IMG/VR virus record: IMGVR_UViG_2778261135_000007
DNA: 17,902 bases
Strand: one strand, 5' to 3'
Source of the DNA: a virus
Taxonomy: Duplodnaviria; Heunggongvirae; Uroviricota; Caudoviricetes
The translations under genes were made by a program, and so were the position numbers. Each line of letters starts with the position of its first letter. Positions within the stretch are counted from its first letter, which is position 1. The notes under the pieces were generated by a model that saw nothing but the letters and a program-made list of their open reading frames with translations, was not told where the DNA came from and did no database searches. Below are positions 8,199-9,288 of this stretch, in pieces.

Positions 8199-8603
8199 GT
8201 GGCAAAAGTTTTTACACAAGAAGAGCGGGAAAAAATTAAAGGGCAGGTGGTGGAACTCGTGCGCCAGAGCGGTCGTGAGACGTTACGGCAACTGGAAGCT
8301 AAAACAGGTGCGACTAGATATCTGATGAGCGTTCTTGCTAGAGAGCTGGTAGCCAGTGGCGATGTATACAACTCCGGCTACGGGTTATTCCCGTCTGAAC
8401 AGGCGCGTAAGGACTGGCAAAACGCCCGCAAAAAACTCTCGAGGGCAAAGGTGAAGAAACCTGCTGTGGTTGATCCGGACCTTATCTGGTCATTACCTGA
8501 CGGAGAAATACGCCGCTACGACAGTCGTCTAAACATAATCTGTCGCGAGTGCCGGAAGAGCGAAGTTATGCAGCGTATACTAACGTTCTATTGGGGAATA
8601 TAG
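8199..8603 (+). CDS. Hypothetical protein (possible winged-helix DNA-binding; C-terminal CxxC)
   Basis: 134-aa ORF with a GTG start and a purine-rich Shine-Dalgarno-like sequence (AAGGGGGA). Immediately downstream of the O-like gene, where a helicase loader would be in lambda, but far smaller than lambda P and showing no similarity to it by eye. Confidence 0.55.
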   Translation: MAKVFTQEEREKIKGQVVELVRQSGRETLRQLEAKTGATRYLMSVLARELVASGDVYNSGYGLFPSEQARKDWQNARKKLSRAKVKKPAVVDPDLIWSLPDGEIRRYDSRLNIICRECRKSEVMQRILTFYWGI

Positions 8604-8618
8604 CCACTAAATAAGGTA

Positions 8619-8930
8619 ATGAACCAAATGAACACGGAAAAAGCGAAAACGCAGCTCAGGATAATGCTTGCCGGTCCGGCTGCGAGTTATACGACACATT
8701 CACCAGCCATAAAAAAGGTTCTTGATGAACTGGAAGCCAAAGACAAGCGCATTGCAGAACTGGAGGCAAGGGAAGTCCAGCTACCGGCTGGCTATGAACT
8801 TCGATATGGACACCCGATAAATGCTGATGAGCGCCATGTCATGATACCTAAGGAAAATGGCAGCTGGATTTATCTGGCTGATTTAGAGCGCGCACTACGT
8901 GTTGCTGGCATTCGCATCAAAGGAGTGTGA
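8619..8930 (+). CDS. Hypothetical protein (coiled-coil segment)
   Basis: 103-aa ORF in the same orientation, tightly spaced in the operon. Contains a charged heptad-like stretch KKVLDELEAKDKRIAELEAREVQL. Confidence 0.55.
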   Translation: MNQMNTEKAKTQLRIMLAGPAASYTTHSPAIKKVLDELEAKDKRIAELEAREVQLPAGYELRYGHPINADERHVMIPKENGSWIYLADLERALRVAGIRIKGV

Positions 8931-8931
8931 C

Positions 8932-9288
8932 GTGGAAATAAAACCAGAAGATGAGTTAAGTAATATTGTTTTATTTCCGGTAAAAGAAGATGACCCACGT
9001 AATCAGGTTAATTTTCTTTATGAGCCATCGGAAAGACCATATTGCCATCACTCTTCTGTCCGGGTTGATGAAAAAGAGCGTCAGGTCCGCTGTAAAATCT
9101 GCGGTGCAGTTGTGGAGCCGTTTGACTGGATGCTCTCTATGGCGAAAAGAGAAACCAGACTGGCAGATGATGTAAGGCTATTGCGTCAGGAGGAACGGGA
9201 AAGGCGGAAAAATATAGAAAAGCTAATTCAGATTGAGCGTAACGCAAAAGCGCGGATACGCAGAGCGACAAAATCCAGAACTGAATAA
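8932..9288 (+). CDS. Hypothetical zinc-ribbon protein with basic C-terminal tail
   Basis: GTG start 6 nt after an AGGAG Shine-Dalgarno and immediately after the upstream stop. Carries CHH...CKICG cysteine/histidine cluster and an R/K/E-rich tail. The track lists the same frame from 8899. Confidence 0.5.
   Translation: MEIKPEDELSNIVLFPVKEDDPRNQVNFLYEPSERPYCHHSSVRVDEKERQVRCKICGAVVEPFDWMLSMAKRETRLADDVRLLRQEERERRKNIEKLIQIERNAKARIRRATKSRTE

Follow-up and report, generated by a model that had tools for sequence, protein, structure and literature searches.

In phage lambda, the initiator gene O, which holds the origin iterons, is followed by the helicase loader gene P and then by ren, and all three lie downstream of cro and cII. 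In a second kind of replication module, represented by POCJ13, vB_EcoS-683R6, Gifsy-1 and the ydaU-ydaV genes of the Rac prophage, an O gene is followed by a DnaC-like loader gene, a DUF1627 gene and a DUF977 gene. In iteron plasmids such as pSC101, R6K and RK2, a single iteron-binding initiator (RepA, pi and TrfA, respectively) recruits DnaB-DnaC of the host, and the plasmid brings no loader of its own. Here we examined the replication module in a 17,902-nucleotide stretch of DNA from a tailed virus (Caudoviricetes; IMG/VR record IMGVR_UViG_2778261135_000007; "the window" is this whole stretch), a lambdoid prophage whose genes are collinear with those of HannyBb, a deposited phage genome. In the window, the gene for an O-like initiator is followed by three small open reading frames (ORFs), ORF1, ORF2 and ORF3. 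With moderate confidence, and from sequence comparison, we read this region as the right end of an early-right replication module of the lambdoid kind, one that lacks a loader of its own and in which none of the three ORFs replaces it; instead, the last 20 residues of the initiator, which resemble the end of Escherichia coli DnaT (the DnaT-type tail), would recruit the host DnaB-DnaC. By analogy, the module appears to work like that of lambda and, in borrowing DnaB-DnaC from the host, like the iteron plasmids. This loader-less, DnaT-tailed module is a variant of known replication modules, and its tail is a lead worth following.

The window follows the gene-order logic of lambda downstream of its cro- and cII-like genes: iterons lie inside the initiator gene, the C-terminal domains of the two initiators are homologous, and a gene of the Ren family closes the module. 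It differs in having no P, and at the nucleotide level neither its N-terminal DNA-binding domain nor its iterons are related to those of lambda. The O-like initiator, which matches phrog_391 ("replication initiation O-like") with E = 3.5e-92, starts with a DNA-binding domain, continues with a linker in which the probable origin lies, and finishes with a lambda-O-like C-terminal domain and the DnaT-like tail; in HannyBb and in phage mEp460_ev081 its gene is annotated as a 966-nucleotide replication gene. The lambda-O-like C-terminal domain, reported in a first-pass annotation made from the letters of the window, was confirmed by an alignment to lambda O residues 135-270 (34% identity over 148 residues, E = 3e-27). 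With this domain and with iterons in its gene, the protein has both features of a lambda O-type initiator. Its extreme C-terminus is of another kind, as lambda O ends in TDWIYGVDL, a lambda-type end that can be written TDWIYGV[DE]L, and the window protein ends in EPDTEIPPGFRG.

A repeat search found the iterons and, adjoining them, three A-rich repeats resembling CTACAGAGAATA (Table 1). The best iteron copy is a partial palindrome, CATCGGGTCAAAATGGCCCGATG. By comparison with the ori-lambda iterons inside gene O, the five iterons are the probable origin, and the A-rich repeats are possibly its unwinding region, as is the A+T-rich region of ori-lambda. Iteron plasmids also use DnaA boxes, and their initiators have no sequence relationship to the O-like protein. 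Near the iterons of the window we found one relaxed match to a DnaA box (8210-8218), which is at chance level. A DnaA-dependent, plasmid-like mechanism, while conceivable, has no support from a match at this level.

We searched for a helicase loader in the three ORFs and in the rest of the window. The first-pass annotation had judged by eye that none of the ORFs resembles lambda P or DnaC, and the profile searches agree: ORF1, ORF2 and ORF3 gave no match to lambda P (phrog_109/PF06992), DnaC/IstB, DnaB or DnaD-type loaders in Pfam, PHROGs or NCBIfam. Lambda P itself matches phrog_109 at 2e-98. Loaders of the DnaC/IstB type are AAA+ ATPases of about 245 amino acids with a Walker A motif (GxxGxGK[ST]) and similarity to DnaC; the three ORFs encode 134, 103 and 118 amino acids and have no ATPase match in Pfam or PHROGs. 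When E. coli DnaB, five variants of DnaC and lambda P served as queries in six-frame tblastn, neither the whole window nor the whole 45-kb HannyBb genome gave anything below E = 0.1, and the five DnaC variants gave no match below E = 1 in the window. No loader-like genes were found elsewhere in the window. Searches of Pfam and PHROGs also gave no match between ORF1-3 and the NinB/Orf or NinG/Rap families, which the first-pass annotation had named as examples of homology that would speak against a role in helicase loading.

That a loader should be expected at this site is borne out by relatives of the window. In three IMG/VR loci (L123, L144 and L161) the gene order is O, DnaC-like, DUF1627 and DUF977, with the DnaC-like and DUF1627 genes sitting precisely between O and DUF977. 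The window aligns with these loci from position 7689 to the O stop codon at 8158 (86-90% nucleotide identity), and the alignment resumes at about 8190-8196, at the start of the DUF977 gene that is ORF1, with an offset of +1554 to +1558 in the relatives. Where the relatives have the 1.55-kb cassette, the window has an unrelated spacer of 37 nucleotides. In the closest modules of this kind, both the part of the initiator gene that encodes the C-terminal domain and tail and the DUF977 gene are 82-92% identical in nucleotides to those of the window, and the tail motif is the same. These alignments indicate that O, DnaC-like loader, DUF1627, DUF977 is the ancestral order and that the spacer marks a deletion or replacement joint at which the DnaC-like and DUF1627 cassette was lost, so that ORF1 now abuts O. 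Within the initiator cluster to which the window protein belongs, 11 loci carry a DnaC-like gene and 11 do not. In 80 IMG/VR loci in which O is at least 96% identical to that of the window, neither lambda P nor DnaC occurs within 6 kb.

The absence of a loader could also mean that there is no helicase loading at all, because the prophage is decaying, is replication-defective and has simply lost a gene. Many E. coli prophages of the Qin/CP-933O-like kind are defective, and some relatives of the window have frameshifted genes in the neighborhood. However, a 211-nucleotide probe across the junction (at least 80% covered) found the loader-less form in 3028 of 5426 complete E. coli genomes (56%), with the O gene, iterons and tail intact. 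The junction from O through the spacer to DUF977 is also present in the deposited phage genomes HannyBb, mEp460_ev081, PhiR42_1, Tritos and vB_EcoM-606R7, and in the window the genes from int through lysis are all open. This distribution argues against simple decay, which we regard as very unlikely. The joint between tail, spacer and DUF977 was found on two different initiator bodies, the 321-amino-acid lambda-O-like protein and a 356-amino-acid protein of the Tritos type, and has therefore spread by recombination.

We next turn to the end of the initiator. The tail, QRCVNHISEPDTEIPPGFRG, shares 14 of 20 residues (70%) with the end of E. coli DnaT, and in both proteins the similarity lies at the extreme C-terminus. 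In a tblastn search of the window with DnaT it was the only significant match (E = 1.7e-5), and it also matches the DnaT chains 2ru8, 6aep and 9zbt_D in the PDB. The C-terminal tail of DnaT is disordered. The O-like protein is not a full DnaT, with its N-terminal domain, linker and three-helix C-terminal domain: it scores 16.3 bits against NCBIfam NF002770, for which the cut-off is 201, in an alignment that covers only residues 302-321, and BLASTP aligns only the last 20 residues. Thus, the two proteins have the tail alone in common, and the window protein is an origin-binding initiator rather than a restart factor. The RAST label "Primosomal protein I", which the protein bears in some records, was rejected because the DnaT match is limited to the tail.

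In the host, the tail and dnaC go together. DnaT of 79 Enterobacteriaceae species keeps the motif RD[VIL]N..SEPD..IP.GFRG, and in 72 of 80 species dnaC starts 3 nucleotides past the dnaT stop codon, as it does in E. coli; the DnaC-like genes of phages start 0-7 nucleotides after tail-bearing initiators. A query with the last 32 residues of O returned 16 proteins, mostly fragments of the same protein, and was too short for a census of the tail. A DNA-pattern scan of IMG/VR for PDxxIPxGFRG followed by a stop codon returned 80 loci, all of which are the C-termini of initiator-like ORFs (mostly 260-400 amino acids, some cut by contig ends). These initiators fall into 13 clusters at 50% identity and have at least five visibly different types of C-terminal domain. 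Enough downstream sequence was present at 76 of the loci: a DnaC-like gene follows directly, within 0-7 nucleotides, at 40, no loader follows at 36, and lambda P follows at none. Viewed from the loader, the pairing is as strict. In locus sets at least 80% or at least 98% identical to the queries, a tail-bearing initiator stands upstream of all 78 phage DnaC-like genes, while an O ending in TDWIYGV[DE]L stands upstream of all 79 lambda P genes (loci L218-L297) and the DnaT-type tail upstream of none of these. The TDWIYGV[DE]L nonapeptide may thus be a P-specific counterpart of the DnaT-type tail. The first-pass annotation had taken the lambda-O-like C-terminal domain to imply a P-like partner; that expectation fails at the extreme C-terminus, where TDWIYGVDL has been exchanged for the type of end that pairs with DnaC-type loaders.

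Loader-less initiators of at least four separate types keep the tail. In one further type (loci L163 and L173), an N-terminal helix-turn-helix precedes a DnaD-like C-terminal region with the tail, and no loader lies downstream; one of the two initiators has next to it a small winged-helix "transcriptional activator" (phrog_1324) and then a large protein resembling DNA methyltransferases, and the other has an unidentified small ORF and then a DUF968-like protein. The initiators of the Uetakevirus phages PAT1 (a Salmonella phage; L090) and SPN1S (L091), which are the phage proteins in the sample closest to DnaT, have a region close to the end of the DnaT C-terminal domain (FHHDQWQQKLARS...) in addition to the tail, and have no adjacent loader. 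On two contigs assigned to Vagococcus sp. WN89Y (L423) and Chryseobacterium sp. 18061 (L431), dnaT has 75% identity to its E. coli counterpart, most likely through enterobacterial contamination of the assemblies.

A mechanism that accommodates these patterns is that the initiator would bind the iterons and open the adjacent A-rich DNA, and that its DnaT-type tail, perhaps with the C-terminal domain, would act as a docking peptide that brings in the host DnaB-DnaC. Since the tail is attached to unrelated domains, a constant external partner is suggested. Since it is kept in the loader-less initiator types, that partner cannot be the phage DnaC alone. Since the only loaders with which the tail is paired, both in phages and in the host operon, are of the DnaC type, we infer a contact with DnaC or DnaB. 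If the tail recruits the host DnaB-DnaC in this way, a phage-encoded copy of DnaC would be dispensable. Host functions, which the first-pass annotation had offered as one possibility, are the best remaining route to helicase loading.

The tail could instead drive self-oligomerization of the initiator, or plug it into the PriA-PriB-DnaT primosome, without touching DnaC or DnaB directly. Removal of 18 C-terminal residues from DnaT turns trimers into dimers (Szymanski 2013, as cited in PMC5314882; see also PMC5778457), initiators of the PAT1/SPN1S type have the whole DnaT C-terminal domain and not just the tail, and how DnaT meets DnaB and DnaC "remains unknown" according to the authors of recent preprimosome structures (PMC13377028). 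However, a contact between the tail and its own protein core is hard to fit to a tail carried by at least five unrelated C-terminal domains, for which a constant external partner is the better fit. In addition, both the strict pairing with loaders of the DnaC type but not the P type and the dnaT-dnaC operon point to DnaC. We therefore consider this explanation rather unlikely.

Several points weigh against recruitment of the host DnaB-DnaC by the tail. The one role reported for the DnaT tail, in the work cited in PMC5314882, is trimerization, and the literature that we found on its function is confined to this report and to statements that recruitment of DnaB/DnaC is unresolved. The authors of the 2026 preprimosome structures favor the N-terminal domain of DnaT as the contact for DnaB/DnaC (PMC13377028). 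The association of tail and DnaC could reflect shared ancestry of the module, since our samples are mostly of closely related enterobacterial phages. Conservation of the last two codons of the tail is partly explained by a second function: where a DnaC-like gene follows 0-7 nucleotides on (L123, L144 and L161), the initiators end in AGG GGG TAA/TGA, and AGG GGG is also the Shine-Dalgarno sequence of that gene. That loader-less phages form plaques is assumed from their deposit as phage genomes. Finally, lambda ren is described as "likely involved in DNA replication" (Thomason et al., bioRxiv 2021.04.19.439022), so that ORF1 may yet act in replication. As to the codons, the window has AGA GGA TAA although its next gene is 41 nucleotides off, and host dnaT likewise ends in AGA GGA TAA; because the codons vary synonymously, the tail motif is kept at the protein level.

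More generally, the 20-residue C-terminus of DnaT and of the phage initiators (R-D/C-V-N-x-I/V-S-x-P-D-x-x-I-P-x-G-F-R-G-COOH) could be a portable docking peptide for DnaC-DnaB, an idea that we put forward tentatively and rate below an even chance. If it holds, any origin- or fork-bound protein carrying the peptide could call the helicase, and phages could drop their own dnaC. A literature search for the motif PPGFRG returned nothing, and in the incomplete library available to us we found no description of the tail as a motif shared by phage initiators or of its pairing with DnaC-type loaders. The link between O and DnaT is not wholly new, since a DnaT C-terminal domain had already been noted in DopC, an O-like protein (Brezellec et al., 2017; PMC5509034).

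We also characterized the three ORFs. The first-pass annotation had called their products uncharacterized, a label that is only partly right, as ORF1 belongs both to Pfam DUF977 (PF06163; E = 8e-27, 94.4 bits against a cut-off of 22.1, residues 1-133 of 134) and to the PHROG of lambda Ren (phrog_142, E = 7.2e-44 for ORF1; lambda Ren matches phrog_142 at 1.6e-41). The two proteins align at a C-terminal motif, ECRxSxxMxRxLxxY. They differ in length (96 amino acids for lambda Ren), and their pairwise similarity is weak outside this motif. From these matches, ORF1 is a homologue of lambda Ren in the DUF977/PHROG-142 family. It starts 41 nucleotides past the O stop codon, the position directly after the replication genes that is also occupied by lambda ren and by Rac ydaW (presumably also DUF977, PHROG 142). 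In an AlphaFold2 model, residues 7-83 form a winged helix (predicted local distance difference test score, pLDDT, above 90), from which a disordered linker leads to a C-terminal helix with the Ren-type motif, so the winged-helix element suspected by the first-pass annotation is confidently present. The alignment behind the model is shallow because all 120 homologues listed are at least 89% identical, and the C-terminal half of the model has low confidence. Foldseek against the PDB retrieved generic winged-helix regulators of the GntR/MarR/IclR type (E of about 0.01), which assigns a fold class only, and sequence searches of the PDB with ORF1, ORF2 and ORF3 gave only chance-level matches.

ORF1 could be a small partner of the O-like protein, assisting it through the winged helix and the conserved C-terminal helix in recruiting or loading DnaB and so offsetting the loss of the DnaC-like loader. 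It is the sole gene constantly kept beside O in the window lineage, standing directly after O in about 77 of the 80 loci with O at least 96% identical, and its family is found at the end of every lambdoid replication module examined. In addition, the preprint that connects lambda ren with replication groups Ren with O as a Rex-interacting replication protein (bioRxiv 2021.04.19.439022). However, the family is as constant where a full loader is present: it follows lambda P at all 79 loci with that gene, and at 24 of 33 loci it follows a DnaC-like gene, often with DUF1627 between, so it does not track the loss of the loader. Moreover, other loader-less, tail-bearing modules (SPN1S, PAT1 and Klebsiella phi3.2) do without it, the gene next to the initiator being DUF1064 in SPN1S and Klebsiella phi3.2 and RusA in PAT1. 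Since its presence is independent of that of a loader, ORF1 is not a loader substitute. It also has no ATPase motif, its fold is that of a generic GntR/MarR-like winged helix, and lambda ren mutants replicate. Thus, a role for ORF1 as a replication partner of this kind is distinctly unlikely, and the non-canonical small partner proposed by the first-pass annotation is not apparent among the three ORFs, none of which looks like a replacement loader.

The product of ydaW is presumably a DUF977 protein. The gene itself, in the Rac prophage, scored as a blocker of the retron-Sen2 toxin, which suggests counter-defense (bioRxiv 2020.06.22.160242). The limited literature on the family points to counter-defense with a possible link to replication, and by analogy with lambda Ren ORF1 is most likely a winged-helix accessory or counter-defense factor of the replication module. 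Homologues are named "LygF" in several phage records, for which a literature search gave no functional study. ORF1 has 134 amino acids in the window but 140-141 in most relatives. Nucleotide similarity to HannyBb and other relatives stops about four codons before the ORF1 stop codon, which places a mosaic recombination joint at the 3' end of the gene (8591-8603), where the ORF2-ORF3 cassette begins.

ORF2 and ORF3 have a different history. ORF2 matches phrog_250 (E = 1.8e-17) over residues 35-102 only, which correspond to the C-terminal part of that family, and scores 15.1 bits against Pfam Ead/Ea22 (PF13935), under the cut-off of 27. Protein gp18 of the Shiga toxin (Stx) phage ArgO145, "ead/Ea22-like" in RefSeq, has the same best PHROG as ORF2, although by BLASTP gp18 has only its last 8 residues in common with ORF2. 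ORF2 may therefore be a short, partial Ead/Ea22-like protein encoded by an accessory gene, an assignment that is uncertain. It contains the coiled coil described in the first-pass annotation, as a short coiled-coil-like stretch. ORF3 matches phrog_1621 (E = 1.2e-55), and C38, H40, C54 and C57 are invariant in 40 homologues, as expected for the zinc ribbon that had been proposed; its C-terminal helix is basic and highly conserved. The AlphaFold2 model (pLDDT 72.5) combines a predicted CHCC zinc-ribbon beta-hairpin with a helix of about 55 residues. Its best Foldseek match in the PDB is the TFIIB zinc ribbon, over 27 residues at E = 0.15, which again is informative only as to fold class, and no loader fold was retrieved. 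The ORF3 family is small (146 proteins found), all members with a named source are enterobacterial, and the gene often follows an Ea22-like gene.

ORF2 and ORF3 are sporadic beside the same initiator. Of the 80 tail-bearing loci, 5 have ORF2. Of the 80 loci with O at least 96% identical, none has ORF2 and one has ORF3. HannyBb and mEp460_ev081 have the same O and DUF977 genes as the window but neither ORF2 nor ORF3. In ArgO145, gp17 is 97.5% identical to ORF3 and is encoded just downstream of the Ea22-like gp18; both genes belong to the early-left operon, with int on one side and the exo/bet/gam-like genes on the other, and the replication genes are about 12 kb away. This rarity beside the same O, together with the early-left counterparts in ArgO145, argues that ORF2 and ORF3 form a pair of mobile accessory genes, of the Ea22/DUF551 type, that is unconnected with replication. 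The alternative raised in the first-pass annotation, that these are unrelated, nin-like accessory genes, thus fits ORF2 and ORF3, for which we infer no replication role. NinB itself had no match among the ORFs downstream of the 80 tail-bearing initiators.

Zinc-binding and helical adaptors are known among helicase loaders, as in the N-terminal domain of DnaI and the small loaders of the DciA type, and an ORF2-like gene neighbors ORF3 not only in the window but also in one IMG/VR locus (L152) and in ArgO145 (gp18-gp17), while some proteins look like fusions of the two. On this basis, ORF2 and ORF3 could form a novel helicase-loading adaptor, separately or together. However, the pair is absent from 79 of the 80 loci with O at least 96% identical, the family is enterobacterial as far as its sources are named, and the ORF3 fold resembles no loader. 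Given the absence of the pair from loader-less phage genomes, the idea is close to refuted, and we give it almost no weight. The apparent fusions in public databases (proteins P0122, P0163, P0160 and P0162) join ORF3 to an Ea22-like protein (about 200 amino acids, PF13935 plus PF08271) or to DUF977 (201 amino acids); they may be genuine and in frame, or may result from frameshifts or from annotation artifacts at tight gene joints. The Ren/DUF977 and Ea22-like assignments play the same role that homology to NinB or NinG would have had. Rather than a new class of helicase loader, the three small genes represent ordinary accessory genes of phages.

The surrounding genes have the order of a lambdoid prophage (Table 1). 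The integrase is followed by an excisionase and the RecE-like exonuclease, and small early-left genes lie between the exonuclease and the repressor; no RecT/Bet-like annealing-protein gene was seen among the early-left window ORFs scanned. The three ORFs downstream of O lie on one strand at the positions given by the first-pass annotation. For ORF3, the GTG at 8932 is likely to be the start, rather than the mechanical 8899, since AAGGAG lies 6 nucleotides before it, the long form aligns to its PHROG only from residue 13 onward, and the ArgO145 homologue in RefSeq has 118 amino acids. Beyond the three ORFs come a DUF551 protein, which extends the Ea22/DUF551 accessory cluster, a Hok/Mok-like toxin, a DUF968/HNH protein, the Q antiterminator and the lysis genes. 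The Hok/Mok-type host-killing toxin gene (10438-10650; phrog_251, MokW-like, E = 8e-33) is placed between the accessory cluster and the DUF968 and Q genes, as it is in HannyBb and mEp460_ev081.

Table 1. Features of the window, with positions counted from its first nucleotide
Feature	Position	Strand	Details
Integrase	20-1315	minus	From window gene order
RecE-like exonuclease	1659-4130	minus	823 amino acids; phrog_2082
Repressor	5986-6393	minus	
Cro-like gene	6477-6707		From window gene order
YdaT/CII-like gene	6691-7212		From window gene order
O-like replication initiator	7193..8158	+	321 amino acids; start ATG 7193; mechanical ORF from TTG 7139
Probable origin iterons	7537..7652	.	Five 23-nucleotide repeats at 23-24-nucleotide spacing, inside the O-like gene; repeat search
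A-rich repeats	7656..7694	.	Three copies of 12 nucleotides, CTACAGAGAATA-like, adjoining the iterons; repeat search
DnaT-type tail codons	8096..8155	+	Last 20 residues of the O-like protein, QRCVNHISEPDTEIPPGFRG; 14/20 identical to the last 20 of E. coli DnaT
Spacer	8159..8195	.	37 nucleotides, in place of the 1.55-kb cassette (DnaC-like and DUF1627 genes) of relatives
ORF1	8199-8603	+	134 amino acids; GTG start; Shine-Dalgarno AAGGGGG
ORF2	8619-8930	+	103 amino acids; ATG start
ORF3	8932-9288	+	118 amino acids from GTG 8932 (likely start); mechanical ORF from GTG 8899, 129 amino acids
DUF551 protein	9384..9953	+	Ead/Ea22-type N-terminus; PF04448, E = 9e-22; phrog_60, E = 1.2e-47

Together, our results describe a very common replication module of E. 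coli prophages, present in more than half of complete genomes, that has cleanly lost its DnaC-like loader and runs on one initiator gene. If the DnaT-type tail is a signal that recruits DnaC/DnaB, it would explain how loader-less phages replicate and would support a phage origin of the dnaT-dnaC operon. It would also make an open step in the restart of bacterial replication simple to test.

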